Below are positions 137-61,431 of a DNA stretch of 64,000 nt, piece after piece. The position numbers and the translations under genes are program-made. Under the pieces are notes generated by a model. That model had not been told where the DNA came from, searched no databases, and saw only the letters and a list, made by a program, of their open reading frames with translations. The stretch is from Escherichia phage vB-Eco-KMB26: sequence record OR539218.1. One strand, given 5' to 3'. How positions within the stretch are numbered: the first letter of the stretch is position 1; every line of letters starts with the position of its first letter.

Positions 137-195
137 TTTATCCCTCCAAGTAACTGTGAATATACTATCACAATTCTAGGAGAAAGTAAACAACT

Positions 196-4156: not shown

Positions 4157-4186
4157 TTCATTCTCCAAGTTGTTTTTGTATCAGTA

Positions 4187-4278
4187 GTTGATAGTTGTAT
4201 AGTACCATGGAAGAACAGGGATGTAAACAGTTGTTGATAGTTGTATAGTACCATGGAAGAACAGGGATGTAAACAGTT
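4187..4278 (-). promoter_or_regulatory. Tandem duplicated sigma70-type T4 early promoter (2 x ~46 bp)
   Basis: Direct repeat gttgatagttgtatagtaccatggaagaacagggatgtaaacag at 4187-4230 and 4233-4276; each copy reads on the reverse strand TTTACA-N17-TACTAT. Confidence 0.6.
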
Positions 4279-4405
4279 TTGTGAAAAAATTTTTTAAAAA
4301 GTTTTAGGGAATTCTAGGGCAGGGAGGGGCAATTAAAAGATAGGATAATATATTATAAAGGGTAGAAACTAAATGATGTCTAGAGAGGCCCGGAAAGGCC
4401 TAGAT

Positions 4406-4436
4406 ACCAAAAAGCCCCAACCTTTTGGTCGGGGCT
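4406..4436 (-). terminator. Rho-independent terminator after the IP-like gene
   Basis: Hairpin agccccaacc-tttt-ggtcggggct at 4413-4436, followed on the reverse strand by a U-run (plus-strand aaaaa at 4408-4412). Confidence 0.6.
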
Positions 4437-4443
4437 AAGAATG

Positions 4444-4917
4444 TTATTTGATTTGTTTAGCAGACCAAATGCGGTCTTTAATAATTTTTTGGATGTCTTC
4501 AACATACTCAAGAGAGTGAACATGTGGGTTATCTTTGAAACTATAAGCACGAGCTAGCTTTTGGCCTTCAGTTTTGATTACTAAAAGCTCTTTAAGGATA
4601 GCTTCATATTTGGAGATAATTCCTTTAACAATATTTTTCTCTTGTGTGACTTTAGGATCTGCTTTAGGAGCAGGTTTACCTGAAGCCTTTGCAAAAGCAG
4701 CTCCAGTAGCAACTAAACTTTTCCAAGCCATACTAACTGCATTCCCTGTAAATCCTTCGGCTTTCATATCACGAGCAAATTGGAATCGTGATTCATCGGA
4801 AGCATCTTTATAGGAATATTTACCCGCGGCAATGGCAGCTTTTGCAACAGCTTGAATTTCAGTGCTAGATGCTTCATTTAACACCGCTTCATTTAAAAAT
4901 TGAGTATATGATTTCAT
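4444..4917 (-). CDS. Internal-protein-like head protein with N-terminal capsid-targeting-like leader (MKSYTQFLNE/AVLNE)
   Basis: 157-aa ORF, ATG with AGGAAATAAG SD; N-terminus resembles the T4 IP capsid-targeting sequence MKTYQEFIAE with L-x-E motifs; TATAAATA late promoter upstream. Confidence 0.6.
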   Translation of the reverse strand: MKSYTQFLNEAVLNEASSTEIQAVAKAAIAAGKYSYKDASDESRFQFARDMKAEGFTGNAVSMAWKSLVATGAAFAKASGKPAPKADPKVTQEKNIVKGIISKYEAILKELLVIKTEGQKLARAYSFKDNPHVHSLEYVEDIQKIIKDRIWSAKQIK

Positions 4918-4953
4918 CTTATTTCCTGTTTTAATTCGGGGTTTTAATATACT

Positions 4954-4961
4954 TATTTATA
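4954..4961 (-). promoter_or_regulatory. T4 late promoter box (TATAAATA, reverse strand) upstream of the IP-like gene
   Basis: Plus-strand tatttata 37 bp upstream of the ATG at 4917. Confidence 0.5.
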
Positions 4962-4991
4962 CTAAAAAGCCCCAACCTTTCGGTCGGGGCT
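4962..4991 (-). terminator. Rho-independent terminator at the distal end of the tRNA cluster
   Basis: Hairpin agccccaacc-tttc-ggtcggggct at 4968-4991 with reverse-strand U-run (plus aaaaa 4963-4967); near-copy of the 4413-4436 hairpin. Confidence 0.6.
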
Positions 4992-5042
4992 AAGCCTTGC
5001 GGCAACCTTGTCGGGGTTCCACCTGCTAAGGCAAGTGTTTGT

Positions 5043-5307: not shown

Positions 5308-5383
5308 TGGTCGAGGCAGTAGGGATCGAACCTACGACCCAGGACTTAGAAGGTCCTTGCTCTTCCTTCTGAGCTATGCCTCG
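5308..5383 (-). tRNA. tRNA-Arg (anticodon UCU)
   Basis: 76-nt cloverleaf CGAGGCA..AGGAC-CTTCTAA-GTCCT..GTAGG-TTCGATC-CCTAC-TGCCTCG-A-CCA; encoded CCA. Confidence 0.85.
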
Positions 5384-5387
5384 TATT

Positions 5388-5462
5388 TGGCGGACGTGAT
5401 AGGATTCGAACCTATAACCAATCGCTTAACAGGCGATCGCTCTGCCATTGAGCTACACATCC
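5388..5462 (-). tRNA. tRNA-Asn (anticodon GUU)
   Basis: 75-nt cloverleaf GGATGTG..GCTC/GAGC D-stem, ATCGC-CTGTTAA-GCGAT anticodon arm, ATAGG-TTCGAAT-CCTAT T-arm, CCA encoded. Confidence 0.85.
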
Positions 5463-5466
5463 AAAT

Positions 5467-5553
5467 TGGTGGGGAGTGGTGGAGTCGAACCACCCGAGTC
5501 GCAATGACAATGAATTTACAGTCCACACCGCTACCTCTACGGGATAACTCCCC
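5467..5553 (-). tRNA. Type II tRNA with long variable arm, probably tRNA-Tyr (anticodon GUA)
   Basis: 87 nt: acceptor GGGGAGT/ACTCCCC, T-arm GGTGG-TTCGACT-CCACC, CCA encoded; best anticodon arm GTGGA-CTGTAAA-TTCAT (loop as in bacterial tRNA-Tyr) but D-arm is non-canonical. Confidence 0.55.
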
Positions 5554-5562
5554 AAATTAATT

Positions 5563-5637
5563 TGGTGGCCCTGGGTGGAATTGAACCACCATCTGGCGAT
5601 TATGAGTCGCTTGCTTGAACCTTCCAGCTACAGGGCC
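5563..5637 (-). tRNA. tRNA with CAU anticodon (Ile2 by T4 synteny, Met not excluded)
   Basis: 75 nt: GGCCCTG acceptor, anticodon loop CTCATAA, T-arm GGTGG-TTCAATT-CCACC, CCA encoded. Confidence 0.75.
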
Positions 5638-5638
5638 T

Positions 5639-5714
5639 TGGTGCTGATTGACGGAATCGAACCGCCGACCTTCTCATTACAAGTGAGTTGCTCTACCTAC
5701 TGAGCTAAATCAGC
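5639..5714 (-). tRNA. tRNA-Thr (anticodon UGU)
   Basis: 76 nt: GCTGATT-TA-GCTC..GAGC, ACTCA-CTTGTAA-TGAGA, GGCGG-TTCGATT-CCGTC, AATCAGC-A-CCA. Confidence 0.88.
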
Positions 5715-5719
5715 AAAAC

Positions 5720-5809
5720 TGGCGGAGGCGATAGGATTTGAACCTATGAGTCGCCGGAGCGACTGCCGGTTTTCAAGACCGGTGCATTAAACCACTCTGC
5801 CACGCCTCC
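5720..5809 (-). tRNA. tRNA-Ser (anticodon UGA), type II
   Basis: 90 nt: GGAGGCG acceptor, CCGGT-CTTGAAA-ACCGG anticodon arm, long variable arm, ATAGG-TTCAAAT-CCTAT, CCA encoded; 2-nt spacer to tRNA-Pro. Confidence 0.88.
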
Positions 5810-5811
5810 AG

Positions 5812-5885
5812 TCTCCGTGGCAGGATTTGAACCTACGACATTCTGCTCCCAAAGCAGACGCTCTACCAAACTGAGCTACACGGAG
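5812..5885 (-). tRNA. tRNA-Pro (anticodon UGG)
   Basis: 74 nt: CTCCGTG-TA-GCTC..GAGC, TCTGC-TTTGGGA-GCAGA, GTAGG-TTCAAAT-CCTGC, CACGGAG-A; CCA not encoded. Confidence 0.88.
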
Positions 5886-5895
5886 TAAATTAAAT

Positions 5896-5969
<74 letters not shown>

Positions 5970-5974
5970 AAATT

Positions 5975-6061
5975 TGGTGCGAGAAGTGGGACTCGAACCC
6001 ACAAGGAAATCATTCCGCAGCATTTTAAGTGCTGTGCCTTTACCAATTTGGCCATTCTCGC
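5975..6061 (-). tRNA. tRNA-Leu (anticodon UAA), type II
   Basis: 87 nt: GCGAGAA acceptor, CAGCA-CTTAAAA-TGCTG, long variable arm, GTGGG-TTCGAGT-CCCAC, CCA encoded. Confidence 0.88.
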
Positions 6062-6062
6062 G

Positions 6063-6135
6063 CTGGGAATAAAGGACTCGAACCTTTGCATCCTGGAATC
6101 AAAATCCAGTGCCTTACCAACTTGGCTAATTCCCA
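6063..6135 (-). tRNA. tRNA-Gln (anticodon UUG)
   Basis: 73 nt: TGGGAAT acceptor, CTGGA-TTTTGAT-TCCAG, T-loop GGTTCGAGTCC; 1-nt spacer to tRNA-Leu. Confidence 0.88.
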
Positions 6136-6522: not shown

Positions 6523-6921
6523 TCAGCCTTCATCAACAATAGTGTGAGTATTAGCATTTACGATTTGCCACCAATCAAAGCGATTAGAATCCATCGGTTT
6601 GTTTTCATTTTCTTTGATAATGTCACGGAGTTCATCTTCAGAGAATGCTTTAGCAATTAAATCGGTATACCCACCACGGGGATAATAATTATCACCTGCA
6701 AACAAAAGGAAATTTACCTTCCCGGAAGCAACATATGCTTCCTTAGGATACTTGTTTCCTGCGTGGTCAACCACTTCAATATAACGGTAAGGAATATCGG
6801 TTCTTTCAACCCATTGCCATGCCGCCGCAGGGGAATCGAAAGCATCTACACCTAAACGATTATCTTCATCTTTAGACGGATTATTTTCGTAATCCGCATA
6901 TACATAATATTCAACGTTCAT
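6523..6921 (-). CDS. Hypothetical protein (132 aa)
   Basis: ORF tightly packed with neighbours (2-bp gap, ATGA overlap upstream); no recognisable motif. Confidence 0.6.
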   Translation of the reverse strand: MNVEYYVYADYENNPSKDEDNRLGVDAFDSPAAAWQWVERTDIPYRYIEVVDHAGNKYPKEAYVASGKVNFLLFAGDNYYPRGGYTDLIAKAFSEDELRDIIKENENKPMDSNRFDWWQIVNANTHTIVDEG

Positions 6922-7164: not shown

Positions 7165-7398
7165 TTATTTTTTACGAAAAATTGATTTATTTTCTGCTGC
7201 CCATTTTTCAATAACTGCAGCAGGACCAGTAACAACAATTTTATCACCGTAATCTTCTGCGGCGAGTTGACCGAAATTATCTAATGCATCACGAAGAACT
7301 CCATGAGGCATTTCACCCATTTTATCTTTCTTGCCAGTGTAAATAAACTCAACTTTTACATCAGCAGTTTCAGCAATAAATTCTTGGTAAGTTTTCAT
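7165..7398 (-). CDS. ipI: Internal protein I-like head protein with capsid-targeting sequence MKTYQEFIAE
   Basis: ORF track begins MEIKM (7410); the second ATG at 7396-7398 gives the canonical IP leader MKTYQEFIAE; position between tRNAs and 57B matches T4 ipI. Confidence 0.75.
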   Translation of the reverse strand: MKTYQEFIAETADVKVEFIYTGKKDKMGEMPHGVLRDALDNFGQLAAEDYGDKIVVTGPAAVIEKWAAENKSIFRKK

Positions 7399-7461: not shown

Positions 7462-7486
7462 CAACTTTGTGAAATTATTTTAAATC
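7454..7486. repeat. 33-bp exact direct repeat, copy 1 (spans stop codon of the IP-like gene and the -35 of the ipI promoter)
   Basis: tatgtaaacaactttgtgaaattattttaaatc, identical to 7785-7817. Confidence 0.9.
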
Positions 7487-7732
7487 TTCTAATCGTTTCT
7501 TCATCTTAGAGCCATTTTTAGCAATTTCTCCTGCATCGGAGCATAATGCTAAAAGTGCTTTAACTTTAGTTTGGTCTCCTTTAAAAGATGAAGGATCGAC
7601 CGCAGCAGCAAGTTCTTTAATACGAGAGAAAAGACGCTCAGCTTCAGCTAAAGCCATTCCAAGCTTTACTTCCATACCGTGGGAAGATTCAGTAATAGTA
7701 GTTTTTGTAGCAAACTCTTTGAAAGTTTTCAT
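7475..7732 (-). CDS. Internal-protein-like protein with capsid-targeting-like leader MKTFKEF..ITE
   Basis: 85-aa ORF, ATG with AGGAAAATAAAA SD; N-terminus resembles the IP leader; ends ..EDLK like 57B (..DDLK) inside the shared 33-bp repeat. Confidence 0.6.
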   Translation of the reverse strand: MKTFKEFATKTTITESSHGMEVKLGMALAEAERLFSRIKELAAAVDPSSFKGDQTKVKALLALCSDAGEIAKNGSKMKKRLEDLK

Positions 7733-8491: not shown

Positions 8492-9216
8492 TATAGTACC
8501 TTTAGTGTATTTTTAATTTTAGAAAAAAGTTCTTCAAGAGAACCATCGTTTGTAATTACTAAATCGCCATCACGAATTGGCAATCCAGCTTCTGTAATAT
8601 GTGTATCATTGGATTTTTGACCAGGACGAACTACATGAATTACTGTAGCACCCATCGCCCTAGCCGCATCCATTTCATGATCTTGACGGGTATCAGGAAC
8701 GATATAATAATCATAACCTGAGTTAAATTTATCAAGATAATCTAAAGCAAATAATTTTACCCAGTACATGCGGTCGAAGTTATTAACAATCAAATCCGTA
8801 CCTAGGGCTTGCATCAGACGACGGACTGACCATTGATCTTCAATATTATTTATAACGTCAATAATCTTGTTAAATGCTACGGAATTAACTGATTCTTGTC
8901 CTTCGTCATCAAAAACAAACACACCTTTAATTGGGCTTTTACCATTAAGATAGCAAAATGCTTGTTCCATAATCGTGATTACTTCTAATTTAGTTAGATT
9001 TAAATTAGTCTCACGATCATAGTCAATTCCTTCAAACTCTTTACGAGTTAAGCAAGGATAGTCGGTATTTGCAGCAAATACTCCCCATGCATAAGCCAAT
9101 GCATCCTTAATAGGACCAGCAAGTTGGTATTTAACTGCAGAATAATTGCTCATGATAAAATCAGCAGTAGTATCTTTTCCACTACGCTTTACACCGCTTA
9201 AAAAGATTAGTTTCAT
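8491..9216 (-). CDS. 1: gp1, deoxynucleoside monophosphate kinase
   Basis: 241-aa ORF with P-loop GVKRSGKDT; T4 gene 1 position and length. Confidence 0.93.
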
Positions 9217-14361: not shown

Positions 14362-16344
14362 ATGGCAAATACCCCTGTAAATTATCAATTAACAAGAACA
14401 GCAAATGCTATTCCCGAGATATTCGTCGGGGGTACATTTGCTGAAATAAAACAAAACCTCATTGAATGGCTTAATGGCCAAAATGAATTTTTGGATTATG
14501 ATTTTGAAGGCTCAAGATTAAACGTTCTGTGTGACCTTTTAGCTTATAATACATTGTACATTCAACAGTTTGGTAATGCTGCTGTGTATGAAAGCTTTAT
14601 GCGTACTGCTAACTTACGAAGTTCAGTTGTTCAAGCTGCACAAGATAACGGATATTTACCTACTTCAAAATCCGCTGCGCAGACCGAAATTATGTTAACA
14701 TGCACCGACGCATTGAATAGGAATTACATTACTATTCCTCGCGGAACTCGCTTTTTAGCATATGCAAAAGATACTTCTGTTAATCCATATAACTTCGTTT
14801 CTACCGAAGACGTTATTGCTATTCGTGATAAAAATAACCAATATTTTCCGCGTTTAAAATTGGCCCAGGGACGTATAGTAAGAACTGAAATCATTTATGA
14901 TAAATTAACACCTATTATCATTTATGATAAAAATATTGATAGAAACCAGGTTAAATTATACGTTGATGGAGCAGAATGGATTAACTGGACAAGAAAGTCA
15001 ATGGTTCATGCTGGTTCTACATCGACAATTTACTACATGCGTGAAACTATTGATGGAAATACTGAATTCTATTTTGGTGAAGGTGAAATTTCTGTTAATG
15101 CTTCTGAAGGAGCTTTGACCGCTAATTATATCGGAGGTCTTAAACCTACTCAGAACTCTACGATTGTTATTGAGTACATCAGTACTAATGGTGCTGACGC
15201 GAACGGAGCAGTCGGATTTTCATACGCAGATACATTAACAAATATAACTGTCATCAATATTAATGAAAATCCAAACGATGACCCAGATTTTGTTGGGGCA
15301 GATGGCGGCGGTGATCCAGAAGATATTGAGCGTATCCGCGAATTGGGTACTATTAAACGCGAAACCCAGCAACGCTGCGTAACTGCGACTGACTATGATA
15401 CATTCGTTTCAGAGAGATTTGGTTCTATTATTCAAGCAGTTCAGACTTTCACTGATTCTACTAAACCTGGTTATGCATTTATTGCTGCTAAACCTAAATC
15501 AGGTCTGTATTTAACTACTGTACAGCGTGAAGATATTAAAAATTATCTCAAAGACTATAATTTAGCTCCTATTACGCCATCAATTATTTCTCCTAATTAT
15601 CTTTTTATTAAGACTAATTTAAAAGTCACATATGCTTTAAATAAGCTGCAAGAATCCGAACAGTGGCTCGAAGGTCAAATAATTGATAAAATTGATCGTT
15701 ATTATACCGAAGACGTAGAAATTTTTAATTCATCTTTCGCTAAATCTAAGATGTTGACATATGTAGATGATGCAGATCATTCTGTCATTGGTTCATCAGC
15801 GACTATTCAAATGGTTCGTGAAGTACAAAACTTCTATAAAACACCTGAAGCAGGTATTAAATACAATAATCAAATAAAAGATCGTTCTATGGAATCTAAT
15901 ACGTTTTCATTTAATTCTGGACGAAAGGTTGTAAATCCTGATACTGGTTTAGAAGAAGATGTATTATATGATGTTCGTATAGTATCAACAGACCGAGATT
16001 CTAAAGGAATTGGTAAAGTTATTATTGGTCCATTTGCTTCTGGCGATGTTACAGAAAATGAAAACATTCAGCCATATACAGGCAATGATTTTAATAAATT
16101 AGCAAATTCTGATGGACGCGACAAATACTATGTTATCGGTGAAATAAATTATCCGGCTGACATGATTTATTGGAATATCGCTAAAATTAATTTAACATCT
16201 GAAAAATTTGAGGTTCAGACTATTGAATTATATTCTGACCCAACCGATGATGTTATCTTTACCCGTGATGGTTCACTGATTGTATTTGAAAATGATTTAC
16301 GTCCGCAATACTTAACTATCGATTTGGAGCCTATATCACAATGA
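14362..16344 (+). CDS. 6: gp6, baseplate wedge protein
   Basis: 660-aa ORF; T4 synteny and length. Confidence 0.93.
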   Translation: MANTPVNYQLTRTANAIPEIFVGGTFAEIKQNLIEWLNGQNEFLDYDFEGSRLNVLCDLLAYNTLYIQQFGNAAVYESFMRTANLRSSVVQAAQDNGYLPTSKSAAQTEIMLTCTDALNRNYITIPRGTRFLAYAKDTSVNPYNFVSTEDVIAIRDKNNQYFPRLKLAQGRIVRTEIIYDKLTPIIIYDKNIDRNQVKLYVDGAEWINWTRKSMVHAGSTSTIYYMRETIDGNTEFYFGEGEISVNASEGALTANYIGGLKPTQNSTIVIEYISTNGADANGAVGFSYADTLTNITVININENPNDDPDFVGADGGGDPEDIERIRELGTIKRETQQRCVTATDYDTFVSERFGSIIQAVQTFTDSTKPGYAFIAAKPKSGLYLTTVQREDIKNYLKDYNLAPITPSIISPNYLFIKTNLKVTYALNKLQESEQWLEGQIIDKIDRYYTEDVEIFNSSFAKSKMLTYVDDADHSVIGSSATIQMVREVQNFYKTPEAGIKYNNQIKDRSMESNTFSFNSGRKVVNPDTGLEEDVLYDVRIVSTDRDSKGIGKVIIGPFASGDVTENENIQPYTGNDFNKLANSDGRDKYYVIGEINYPADMIYWNIAKINLTSEKFEVQTIELYSDPTDDVIFTRDGSLIVFENDLRPQYLTIDLEPISQ

Positions 16345-36272: not shown

Positions 36273-36697
36273 TGCTTCTGATCCCTGAAACTCATGAATT
36301 AGTTCTCGAGAATGTCGAAGCACTTATTCCTGAAGCACAGGGTCGCTTTGACGAATTGTCTTCTGCTTTAAATAAAGACGATATAAATACAATTGTCGAG
36401 AATATGCTTGATGATGAAACTGATTTAGCGGTTGCATTAGCTTCTATTAATGAAAATATGCCGTTAAATGAATTTATCGTTAAACATGTTTCTGCCCGTG
36501 GTGAAATTACTCGCACTAAAGATCGCAAAACCCGCGAACGTAATGCATTTCAAACTACCGGGTTGTCTAAAGCAAAACGTAGACAAATTGCTCGTAAAGC
36601 TACCAAAACGAAGATTGCCAATCCAGCAGGTCAATCTCGTGCTCAGCGTAAGCGTAAAAAAGCTCTTAAACGCCGTAAAGCATTAGGATTAAGCTAA
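36272..36697 (+). CDS. 68: gp68, prohead core protein
   Basis: 141-aa ORF with basic C-terminus; TAATG coupling on both sides. Confidence 0.88.
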
Positions 36698-37335
36698 TGA
36701 ATGAACCCCAATTACTAATTGAAACTTGGGGTCAACCTGGCGAAATTATTGATGGCGTACCAATGCTTGAATCTCATGATGGAAAAGACTTAGGTTTAAA
36801 ACCGGGTTTATACATCGAAGGAATATTCATGCAAGCGGAAGTCGTCAATAGAAATAAACGTCTTTATCCAAAACGTATATTAGAAAAAGCGGTAAAAGAC
36901 TATATTAATGAGCAAGTTTTAACTAAACAAGCTCTCGGAGAATTAAATCATCCTCCACGCGCTAATGTTGACCCGATGCAAGCCGCTATCATTATAGAAG
37001 ATATGTGGTGGAAAGGAAATGACGTATACGGACGAGCTCGTGTTATTGAAGGTGACCACGGTCCTGGAGATAAATTAGCAGCTAATATTCGTGCCGGATG
37101 GATTCCAGGAGTTTCTTCTCGTGGATTAGGTTCATTGACTGACACAAATAAAGGTTATCGTATCGTAAACGAAGGATTCAAATTAACTGTAGGTGTTGAT
37201 GCAGTATGGGGTCCAAGTGCTCCAGATGCATGGGTAACTCCTAAGGAAATTACCGAATCACAGACGGCGGAAGCCGATACAAGTGCCGATGACGCCTATA
37301 TGGCTCTCGCAGAGGCCATGAAAAAAGCGTTATAA
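36697..37335 (+). CDS. 21: gp21, prohead core scaffold protease
   Basis: 212-aa ORF; T4 synteny 68-21-22. Confidence 0.93.
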   Translation: MNEPQLLIETWGQPGEIIDGVPMLESHDGKDLGLKPGLYIEGIFMQAEVVNRNKRLYPKRILEKAVKDYINEQVLTKQALGELNHPPRANVDPMQAAIIIEDMWWKGNDVYGRARVIEGDHGPGDKLAANIRAGWIPGVSSRGLGSLTDTNKGYRIVNEGFKLTVGVDAVWGPSAPDAWVTPKEITESQTAEADTSADDAYMALAEAMKKAL

Positions 37336-37365: not shown

Positions 37366-38175
37366 ATGCTTAAAGAACAACTGATTGCTGAAGCGCAAAA
37401 AATTGATGCTTCCGTTGCTCTTGATAGTATTTTCGAATCAGTTAATATTTCTCCGGAAGCAAAAGAAACTTTCGGCACTGTATTCGAAGCTACCGTCAAG
37501 CAGCACGCCGTTAAATTAGCTGAATCTCATATCGCTAAAATTGCTGAAAAAGCAGAAGAAGAAGTAGAAAAAAATAAAGAAGAAGCAGAAGAAAAAGCTG
37601 AGAAGAAAATCGCTGAGCAAGCTTCTAAATTCCTTGACCATCTTGCAAAAGAATGGCTCACTGAAAATAAATTAGCAGTAGATAAAGGTATCAAAGCCGA
37701 ACTGTTTGAATCCATGCTTGGTGGATTGAAAGAGCTCTTCGTTGAACACAACGTTGTTGTTCCAGAAGAATCAGTTGATGTTGTAGCTGAAATGGAAGAA
37801 GAACTGCAAGAACATAAAGAAGAATCAGCTCGTCTGTTCGAAGAACTCAATAAGCGTGACGCATATATCAATTATGTGCAGCGTGAAGTGGCATTGAGCG
37901 AAAGTACTAAAGATCTGACTGAGTCTCAAAAAGAAAAAGTCTCTGCTCTGGTCGAAGGTATGGATTATTCAGATGCATTCTCAAGTAAATTGAGTGCAAT
38001 CGTAGAAATGGTGAAGAAATCTAATAAAGATGAAAGCACTATTACTGAGAGTATAAATACTCCTGATACTGAAGCAGCCGGACTGAATTTCGTCACTGAA
38101 GCTGTAGAAGATAAATCTGCACAAGGTGCAGAAGATATTGTAAGTGTATATGCGAAAGTCGCATCTCGTTTCTAA
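37366..38175 (+). CDS. 22: gp22, major prohead scaffolding core protein
   Basis: 269-aa helical E/K-rich ORF; T4 synteny. Confidence 0.93.
   Translation: MLKEQLIAEAQKIDASVALDSIFESVNISPEAKETFGTVFEATVKQHAVKLAESHIAKIAEKAEEEVEKNKEEAEEKAEKKIAEQASKFLDHLAKEWLTENKLAVDKGIKAELFESMLGGLKELFVEHNVVVPEESVDVVAEMEEELQEHKEESARLFEELNKRDAYINYVQREVALSESTKDLTESQKEKVSALVEGMDYSDAFSSKLSAIVEMVKKSNKDESTITESINTPDTEAAGLNFVTEAVEDKSAQGAEDIVSVYAKVASRF
38052..38059 (+). promoter_or_regulatory. Candidate late promoter for gene 23, inside the 3' end of gene 22
   Basis: tataaata ~135 bp upstream of the gene 23 ATG; no box in the short 22-23 intergenic gap. Confidence 0.4.
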
Positions 38176-59782: not shown

Positions 59783-59971
59783 TTAATAATCTAGTGGTAA
59801 GAGAGTACGGTATATTTCAAACTTTGGACCTTTTTCATAGGCATCAATTGTTTCTGTGAATTTATTATAAGCGTATGCATCTACAAATTCGAGAATGACT
59901 TGTGATACAGAAGTAGAAACATCTCCACCTTCTTTTTGAGCAATGACAATTGTTTCTAAGTAAGCTTTCAT
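59783..59971 (-). CDS. Small hypothetical protein (62 aa)
   Basis: ORF with ATG overlapping ligase stop (ATGA); no motif. Confidence 0.5.
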   Translation of the reverse strand: MKAYLETIVIAQKEGGDVSTSVSQVILEFVDAYAYNKFTETIDAYEKGPKFEIYRTLLPLDY

Positions 59972-61431
59972 AAACCAGTTACCTCATGAAAATCACCAAA
60001 TACATCCTCGAATGTATTAGCTTTAGTTTTATCTTCACGCAAACGAATCGCAATCGGAAGAAATAATTTAACGTAATCAGTGCGGCCATCAGATTTTAAC
60101 CAACCGTTGCATTCGCACTCTAGAATTTTTCCAATATAATAATTTTGGTTTTCCATAATGCGAGTACGGTCAAGTTCATGCGATTTTACACCGGCTTTAT
60201 CTTTTAAGCCTGAACCAGCATTTACTTTAATTTTTCCACACTCTGACTCAAGAATAAATCCACCTGCTTTAGTAGGGTCTTTACGGTGAGGATAAATTCC
60301 TACAATTTTTAAATCAACATCAATTACTTCTTTAAATTTATAGAGATTTTTTGAACGAGCATTTTCCCATAATCCATCGATATTTTTGAGAATAATACCT
60401 TCAAGACCTTGGTCAATATACTTTTTATAAATTACCTTGGCTTCGTCTAGGTTATTTACTACCTGGTTTTCAATTAAAATTACTTTATCATAGCCTGATG
60501 TCATTTGTTCTAGTTTAGAAAAACGTACATCATATTTCAAACGAAATGCAGGAAGACCGTATATTTCTACCAACGGTACATAATCCCAGACCTGAAACTT
60601 CATGCATTGTGCTTCTTTTTCAGAAATGGTTCCCTTTAAAGATTTATTGGCGATGCCATTAGATGCAGTACGTGATTCAGCTACTTCGGCGAATTCTTTA
60701 GCTTTACTGTTTTCAGGATAAGCATCAAAAAGAAAATCTAGGCCTTCTGGCTCCTTTTCAACTTGCTCATGGTATACCAATTCGCCATCAATTAACACGC
60801 CTTCTGGATGAATCTGGCGGGCTTCAGCGGTCATTTTGATTAATTCTTCCTTAAGAAGATCTAATCCTAGATATTCATTACCAGCTCGTGATAAAAGACG
60901 AACGTCATCTAATTCATCACCTCTGACTTCGGCAAAGCACCGAGCTCCATCAGCTTTTAACTGGGCAAAGGCTGGAAATTTGATATTCTTATTAATGCCT
61001 TTTTCATCATAAGAACTTGCGAGCATTTGAGGTTGTTCAGGAATTAAACCTGGCCAAACTTTGTTTGCAATAGATACTGAAGCACCACATTCAAGGTCTC
61101 GCATCATCACTCGACGCAAAACTTCAACATCATCTTTTTTACCGTCAGTAATATAACCTACTAATTCCTCAATTGCCGCATTTCCGGTCAATTTTCGAGT
61201 AGCTAATGTAAATTCAATGAAGTCAAGCATATCAGTAATAGTCAGCATTCCAAAACTCTGGGTAGCAATACCAGGTTTAGGCCATTTCTTGATATAATAC
61301 TGTAACCCACGAGAATAAGTCAGACGATATACTCGTTTAAGCAATTCATTATCTTTATTCTTTTCAAGAATTGCTTGCTTCTGCTTAGTTGAACCAATAG
61401 ATGCTATTTCGTTCAGAATTTTAAGAATCAT
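59968..61431 (-). CDS. 30: gp30, ATP-dependent DNA ligase
   Basis: 487-aa ORF; N-terminus MILKILNEIASIGSTKQKQAILEKNKDNELLKRVYRL..; adenylation lysine motif QLKADGARCF (KxDG). Confidence 0.95.
   Translation of the reverse strand: MILKILNEIASIGSTKQKQAILEKNKDNELLKRVYRLTYSRGLQYYIKKWPKPGIATQSFGMLTITDMLDFIEFTLATRKLTGNAAIEELVGYITDGKKDDVEVLRRVMMRDLECGASVSIANKVWPGLIPEQPQMLASSYDEKGINKNIKFPAFAQLKADGARCFAEVRGDELDDVRLLSRAGNEYLGLDLLKEELIKMTAEARQIHPEGVLIDGELVYHEQVEKEPEGLDFLFDAYPENSKAKEFAEVAESRTASNGIANKSLKGTISEKEAQCMKFQVWDYVPLVEIYGLPAFRLKYDVRFSKLEQMTSGYDKVILIENQVVNNLDEAKVIYKKYIDQGLEGIILKNIDGLWENARSKNLYKFKEVIDVDLKIVGIYPHRKDPTKAGGFILESECGKIKVNAGSGLKDKAGVKSHELDRTRIMENQNYYIGKILECECNGWLKSDGRTDYVKLFLPIAIRLREDKTKANTFEDVFGDFHEVTGL

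Follow-up and report, generated by a model that had tools for sequence, protein, structure and literature searches.

A candidate internal head protein family encoded between e.8 and the tRNA region of T4-like phages

The internal proteins of T4-like phages enter the cell with the DNA, ahead of any phage gene expression, and act as first responders. Their packaging has been reviewed on the basis of work from the Black laboratory: head incorporation needs no more than the first 10 residues of IPIII, and the 10-residue T4 leader alone is enough to package foreign proteins. The leader targets proteins to the prohead core, of which gp22 is a part. In IPIII, targeting proceeds mainly via residues 4 and 7 and processing via residues 8 and 10, and gp21 cleaves after L/I-x-E. 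Within the head, the lysines of T4 internal proteins contact DNA phosphates.

IPI is packaged and injected, and IPI* inhibits the GmrSD of E. coli CT596. The first-pass annotation of the present DNA named IPI* as the known example of an anti-restriction internal protein, a statement that has been overtaken, as Ip2, Ip3 and Bas37_0260 have now also been shown to inhibit type IV enzymes. Ip1, Ip2 and Ip3 each inhibit one distinct GmrSD-type enzyme, with no cross-protection; Ip2 blocks the GmrSD of ECOR21 and Ip3 that of ECOR17, a strain on which the requirement for IPIII was first seen by Srikant et al. Bas37_0260, one of the two ipI-locus genes of Bas37, inhibits McrBC according to a preprint. 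Wherever the target of an internal protein is known, it is a type IV restriction enzyme, a different one in each case, and several GmrSD variants that are active against T-even phages are without a known inhibitor. Silas et al. 2025 described "two Ip loci" and tested ip1-10.

The coding sequence, its leader and its expression signals

The DNA analyzed here (the window) is a stretch of 64,000 nucleotides from Escherichia phage vB-Eco-KMB26 (OR539218.1), a T4-like phage (Tequatrovirus) whose minus-strand gene order follows that of T4. At 4444-4917 its minus strand contains an ORF of 157 residues, the first of which are MKSYTQFLNEAVLNE (also given as MKSYTQFLNEAVLNEASS). The elements of this gene are as follows, a slash marking a predicted cut:

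4444-4917, minus strand: precursor coding sequence, 157 aa, 17.3 kDa, pI 9.46; stop codon at 4444-4446
4873-4917, minus strand: leader/propeptide, codons 1-15 (MKSYTQFLNE/AVLNE/A), with predicted gp21 cuts after E10 and/or E15
4888-4917, minus strand: capsid-targeting core, codons 1-10, part of the leader
4924-4927, minus strand: Shine-Dalgarno sequence AGGA, 6 nt before the ATG, kept in relatives
4954-4961, minus strand: T4-type late promoter TATAAATA, exact, 36 nt upstream of the ATG
4959-4993, minus strand: 35-bp direct repeat, upstream copy, with a terminator hairpin (4968-4991) that ends the rnaC/tRNA transcript
4404-4438, minus strand: 35-bp direct repeat, downstream copy, with a terminator hairpin (4413-4436) that ends the ORF's own transcript

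The resemblance to the T4 capsid-targeting sequence noted in the first-pass annotation holds at all four positions that were mapped in IPIII (Y4, F7, L8 and E10). The gp21-type L-x-E sites claimed there are likewise present in the leader, as L8-N9-E10/A and L13-N14-E15/A; the Ala that follows E10 is the same as in IPII and IPIII. A further L-K-E inside the ORF (residues 108-110) represents a possible extra cleavage site. Among the 562 Met-starts of at least 40 codons in the 64-kb window, only three begin with MK[ST][YF]xxF, namely the ORF and two genes of the ipI locus, and the pattern K2,[ST]3,[YF]4,F7,[LIV]8,E10 would be expected 2.7e-4 times per window, given the amino-acid composition of the window. 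The resemblance is therefore not a matter of chance.

The two ipI-locus genes stand in place of T4 ipI:

7165-7398, minus strand: internal protein, 77 aa, leader MKTYQEFIAE/T (phrog_8111, internal virion protein)
7475-7732, minus strand: second internal protein, 85 aa, leader MKTFKEFATKTTITE/S (phrog_3499, internal head protein)

The same pair is carried by T6 (98.7% and 100% identical, respectively), and T2 has the 85-aa gene. The mature 77-aa protein is not basic (pI 6.5). A loose-motif match at 59968-61230 was considered as a fourth leader-bearing gene and rejected, since its ORF matches an ATP-dependent DNA ligase domain (Pfam). To judge from the T4 gp30 sequence, its Met is presumably internal to the ligase gene.

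The late promoter that had been claimed for the ORF is an exact match, to a motif that is commoner than expected in the window (24 occurrences versus 9.3). It is kept in exact form upstream of the homologues in related loci L002-L007 and L010. No late promoter was found within 110 nt upstream of the homologue in the Yersinia phage locus L011 (fHe-Yen9-01), where a gene for a 189-aa paralogue directly precedes it. Together with the two near-identical intrinsic terminators that bracket the ORF, these signals support an arrangement in which the gene would be expressed late, when proheads assemble.

Location, distribution and conservation of the family

On the minus strand, the window runs through denV (from 136, off the end), e (690-196), nudE, e.2 to e.8 (4168-3893) and the ORF (4917-4444), followed by an rnaC/rnaD-like stretch, ten tRNA genes (5308-6135), trna.2-.4, the two internal protein genes, 57B, 57A and gene 1. 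The tRNA genes number eight in T4, the extra ones here being tRNA-Asn and tRNA-Tyr, and the window lacks segB, the homing endonuclease gene by which the T4 cluster is split. Between the ORF terminator and e.8, a 46-bp unit is repeated in tandem (4182-4278; 2.1 copies, 98% match), and each copy contains a minus-strand sigma-70-like promoter (TTTACA-17-TACTAT, with an upstream TG). In T4 the corresponding interval is shorter by about 48 bp, suggesting that only one copy is present there.

The direct adjacency of denV and e (136 to 196), with neither ipII nor ipIII between them, was confirmed:

137-195, minus strand: e-denV intergenic gap, 59 nt, no ORF; T4 has ipIII and ipII here

A tblastn search of the whole window with T4 IPII and IPIII returned nothing but a leader of 10-19 residues, that of the gene at 7398. 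The absence of the two genes thus stands for the window, but not as something linked to the ORF, since in six of ten related loci (L006-L011) the homologue is accompanied by ipII and/or ipIII; on this ground the idea that the ORF replaces ipII/ipIII was rejected. The e-denV gap is variable in relatives, being empty or occupied by ipII, ipIII or a gene for a 93-aa internal protein. In ECML-123-2, the nearest relative, the ORF that comes after denV (195 aa) corresponds to vs.8 in its position, and no internal-protein gene was found on either side of denV.

The position of the ORF, described in the first-pass annotation as non-canonical, is so relative to T4; for the family, the interval between e.8 and the rnaC/tRNA region is the conserved home. 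In all ten related loci (IMG/VR) the homologue lies there. Leader-type starts in the related loci occur in three places, i.e., the ipI locus, the e-denV-vs.8 region and the e.8-rnaC/tRNA interval, the last of which contains leader-bearing genes in L003, L005-L011 and RB69. Its occupants in the related loci are the family gene alone, or the family gene plus a 187-aa gene of the RB69ORF149c type. RB69 is without the family gene and carries another leader-bearing gene, RB69ORF149c (MKTYAEFLTE/AAK...), at the same site. The ORF is thus outside both recognized Ip loci (ipI; e-denV), residence in which is customary and not mechanistically required. Leader-bearing genes have in the e.8-rnaC/tRNA interval a third conserved locus, previously unrecognized.

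Some further leader-bearing genes were noted in the relatives. RB69ORF149c and RB69ORF148c (L013 13429-13991; RB69 73428-73990) look like one frameshifted 187-aa leader-bearing gene, which is intact in L003 (10600-11163), L005 and L009; the RB69 copy would be a pseudogene, unless the reference record contains a sequencing error. The fHe-Yen9-01 locus (L011) exhibits seven leader-type starts in 20 kb, among them one upstream of 57B (4210-4446) and a 52-aa ORF inside the tRNA region (8700-8858) with a perfect leader, MKTYIEFINE/IIV.... Just after denV, L005 encodes a different 157-aa leader-bearing protein (15665-16138; MKTYQEFITEAAINSQIIAE/S...). Possible counterparts of the latter, of the same length and in equivalent position, are fD1 g129 ("Head protein") and T2 L014 7430-7903. 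The T2 gene adjoins lysozyme e under the annotation "valyl tRNA synthetase modifier", and the T2 stretch gave no match to denV.

The ORF and its promoter and terminator form a 520-bp cassette flanked by the 35-bp direct repeats. In T4, a 35-bp terminator hairpin (L001 7326-7360) aligns to both copies; it is the single copy of the repeat, without the 520 bp between copies, and the same arrangement is present in T2 and T6. A single repeat copy with no gene in these three phages fits a loss by recombination between the repeats. Since several genera share the gene at this position, its loss from T2, T4 and T6 would be more parsimonious than gain.

The distribution of the protein was compared with those of the T4 internal proteins and of the neighboring gene product by tblastn (E <= 1e-5) against 50,697 phage records:

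ORF protein: 511 records (467 with at least 80% coverage)
IPI: 291 records
IPII: 198 records
IPIII: 261 records
e.8 (neighboring gene): 596 records

The family occurs in Tequatrovirus, Mosigvirus and T4-like phages of Klebsiella, Yersinia, Salmonella and Citrobacter. It is found in more records than IPI, IPII or IPIII, yet it is absent from the three model T-even phages and annotated as hypothetical. The identical protein is present in the closest records (ECML-123-2, vB_EcoM-G3F6 and vB_EcoM-PM136). Among some 100 named cluster members, all are "hypothetical" with the exception of one record, from Klebsiella phage KPKp, termed "Internal head protein". The ORF matches phrog_2280 in PHROGs, a family of unknown function, and has no match in Pfam or NCBIfam. 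The genes ip4-10 reportedly originate from Repoila et al. 1994. Sequence strings of the ORF protein are absent from the supplements of Silas et al. 2025.

The family was gathered by a word-indexed search together with a full HMM search of 1.84 billion representatives, the latter of which yielded only 13 clusters, all of one small family. Identity in Tequatrovirus and Mosigvirus loci is 74-98%. Across a 14-member alignment whose most distant sequences are about 27% identical, no column is invariant except M1, F7 and the Glu of the cleavage site (E15); L8 is nearly invariant, and position 4 is Y or F in all 14 sequences. Leader length varies by indels, while its end is always [LIVT]-x-E. The leader is thus more conserved than the body, as expected of a propeptide for targeting and cleavage. 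The internal L-K-E is not kept in the Klebsiella and Yersinia members, which retain the N-terminal domain and have a different C-terminal domain.

An AF2 model of the ORF (pLDDT 75; below 50 at residues 4-15) is predicted to be all-helical; in it, a disordered leader precedes an N-terminal domain of four helices, which a Pro/Lys-rich linker joins to a helical hairpin at the C-terminus. Foldseek comparison of this model with the PDB and BFVD returned only matches within its own family, and no fold of a known inhibitor.

A 94-aa metagenomic sequence (P0013, on a 2898-bp contig) proved to be a chimera. It opens with a Trna.3-like part (window 6523-6921) and closes with 32 residues that form the C-terminus of the ORF's family, which suggests a deletion that joined Trna.3 to the family gene and removed the tRNA cluster.

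Packaging, possible function and competing explanations

We consider the ORF to be the precursor of a T4-type internal head protein that is packaged, processed by gp21 to about 15.5 kDa and injected, and we assign this reading a probability of roughly 0.7 (0.7-0.75 for internal-protein identity as such). The genes for gp67, gp68, gp21, gp22 and gp23 are all encoded within the window, and two of the products bear directly on the proposed pathway:

36697-37335, plus strand: gp21 prohead protease (Peptidase_S77, E = 1.5e-111), the enzyme expected to remove the leader
37366-38175, plus strand: gp22 scaffolding core protein (T4_CASP, PF25623, E = 5e-90), of the prohead core

The gene is equipped for late transcription by a TATAAATA promoter of its own, between the two terminators, and the first 10-15 residues of its product constitute a capsid-targeting sequence. 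In the proposed sequence of events, this sequence would bring the product into the prohead core. There, gp21 would cut after E10 and/or E15 (L-N-E/A). A cut after E10 would leave A11 as the mature N-terminus (peptide AVLNEASSTEIQAVAK), and one after E15 would leave A16 (ASSTEIQAVAK). The product so released would be a basic (pI ~9.5), all-helical protein of 142-147 residues, which would presumably stay in the head with the DNA and be ejected into the next host cell. By analogy, it may then neutralize a first-line host defense, the likeliest target being a type IV (modification-dependent) restriction enzyme of the GmrSD/McrBC kind.

Evidence from particles is available for Yersinia phage fD1 (HE956711), whose g140 is an orthologue of the ORF product (98.7% identical). 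Skurnik et al. (Table S3) scored g140 as particle-associated in virions purified by ultracentrifugation, at a strict LC-MS/MS threshold that called for peptides in every replicate and a spectral count averaging 2 or more. At least two g140 peptides were recovered from mature particles, and the same mark is given to g129 and g146, which are annotated as head proteins. The dataset is unspecific: between 113 and 137 of the 277 gene products were scored as particle-associated, including DenV, lysozyme e and NudE, and the detection is consequently weak evidence of true packaging. The data show that g140 is expressed and co-purifies with particles, not that it is specifically packaged. The absence from purified particles that the first-pass annotation had in mind was thus not observed for this close orthologue, with the same reservation as to the dataset. 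No other usable virion proteomes of carrier phages were found in the literature.

A late cytoplasmic protein that is never packaged, its leader being a non-functional relic of recombination among the 5' ends of late genes, would agree with a position outside the two recognized Ip loci, with the label "hypothetical" in nearly all records and with the unspecific nature of the proteomic data. We regard this as very unlikely, for no other part of the family is as conserved as the leader, which would not be so for a relic, the orthologue passed the strict threshold in purified particles, and, as a 10-residue leader suffices in T4, a protein that carries one should be packaged in a phage that possesses gp21 and gp22. 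More improbable still is an accessory of the prohead core like gp67 or gp68, i.e., a protein with a role in assembly that is fragmented by gp21 and mostly expelled before DNA packaging. Its three L/I-x-E motifs, one of them internal, and its long helices (as in scaffold proteins) would suit such a role; the lack of conservation of the internal motif in the Klebsiella and Yersinia members, the fact that T2, T4 and T6 dispense with the gene and the recovery of peptides from mature particles all argue against it.

If the protein is packaged, its role could also be a physical one, with no specific host target. The mature product is basic (pI 9.5-9.6, close to those of IPII* and IPIII*) and lysine-rich, with 24 Lys+Arg and a Lys/Pro-rich linker, and might neutralize DNA charge or organize the genome, in keeping with the lysine-phosphate contacts of the T4 internal proteins; the family is moreover unusually widespread and less variable than would be expected of an arms-race effector. 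On the other hand, T2, T4 and T6 manage without the gene, the four internal proteins whose role is known are all specific defense inhibitors, and the combination of one N-terminal domain with different C-terminal domains, along with tandem paralogues, is what an evolving effector would exhibit. On balance we judge a purely physical role to be improbable.

Some role against host defense, of whatever kind, is in our estimate an even chance, argued from analogy. The single most likely role is that of a type IV restriction inhibitor, which we propose tentatively, because all four of the internal proteins with known targets act in this manner; the results on Ip2, Ip3 and Bas37_0260 sharpen the anti-defense suggestion of the first-pass annotation. 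Published tests of T2, T4 and T6 say nothing on the targets of the gene, as these phages lack it, and a widespread, unstudied family that is absent from the model phages makes a candidate for the orphan GmrSD targets. A bolder and rather unlikely possibility is that the e.8-rnaC/tRNA interval is a third hotspot of injected proteins whose occupant acts on a host system other than GmrSD/McrBC. On that view the main occupant would be the T-even group's most widespread leader-bearing protein, built from a conserved N-terminal and exchangeable C-terminal domains. Were such a hotspot real, it would reveal a new first-line defense or a new kind of injected effector, one that would have been missed because the cassette was lost in T2, T4 and T6. 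Beyond this, leader searches outside the two classical loci can find more injected proteins, and T4-based delivery vectors could use the leader variant to package proteins.

Comparison with known internal proteins

BLASTP of the ORF against T4 IPI, IPII and IPIII gave nothing significant, and when BLASTP and hhalign were applied to these three and to the 85-aa internal protein of the window, the alignment was limited to residues 1 to about 17. The alignment to IPII and IPIII proposed in the first-pass annotation therefore shows that the ORF is not their orthologue, and a displaced ipII or ipIII was rejected, as the likeness ends with the leader. In the IPIII/IPII leader (MKTYQEFIAE/A), positions 1, 2, 4, 7, 10 and +1 are as in the ORF, and positions 3 and 8 are conservative. 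As with the ORF, the genes of IPIII and IPII are small, non-essential and cassette-like, have a late promoter and encode a protein that is basic when mature (pI ~9.6). Unlike them, the ORF possesses a second L-x-E site five residues downstream of the first, and is located at the e.8-rnaC locus as opposed to e-denV.

IPI resembles the ORF in its longer leader, in which the MK[TS][YF]xEF core is followed at some distance by an I-x-E site for gp21. There is no sequence similarity between the two, and IPI* is a compact alpha/beta protein of 76 residues, whereas the ORF product is predicted to be all-helical, with 142-147 residues in two domains and a linker. The 15-residue leader with two nested L-x-E sites (F-L-x-E-x-[IV]-L-N-E) recurs in annotated internal proteins of relatives, one of 93 aa (MKTYSEFLSESILNE/A) and one of 90 aa (MKSYQEFITESILNE/E). 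Their mature parts are unrelated to that of the ORF, and their genes are located at the classical e-denV and ipI loci. Of the two, the 93-aa protein shares 47% identity with the 85-aa protein of the window.

The 187-aa protein of the RB69ORF149c type and the 189-aa paralogue of fHe-Yen9-01 share with the ORF both the e.8-rnaC/tRNA locus and the layout, i.e., a helical domain, a Pro/Lys/Ala linker and a second helical domain. Both are annotated as hypothetical, and their leaders are MKTYAEFLTE/A or MLQYNEFLKESLISE/A. According to hhalign, the 189-aa protein is a distant relative of the ORF family (probability 86%, E = 5e-6) and matches the 187-aa protein with E = 1e-4; pairwise BLAST of the ORF against the 187-aa protein aligns the leader alone.

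Bas37_0260, from a non-model T-even phage, is likewise non-essential and shares with IPI-III solely the N-terminal packaging signal. It is encoded at the ipI locus, its target McrBC has been shown experimentally, and it is likened to the ORF by description only. The likeness of Ip1-3 to one another is confined to the leader as well. The known inhibitors are thus mutually unrelated, and the missing similarity to them is no argument against an inhibitor function of the ORF product. Judged by its sequence, the mature part resembles no known internal protein and appears to constitute a new family within a known kind of system; the mechanism would be the expected one, and the candidate is widespread and unstudied.
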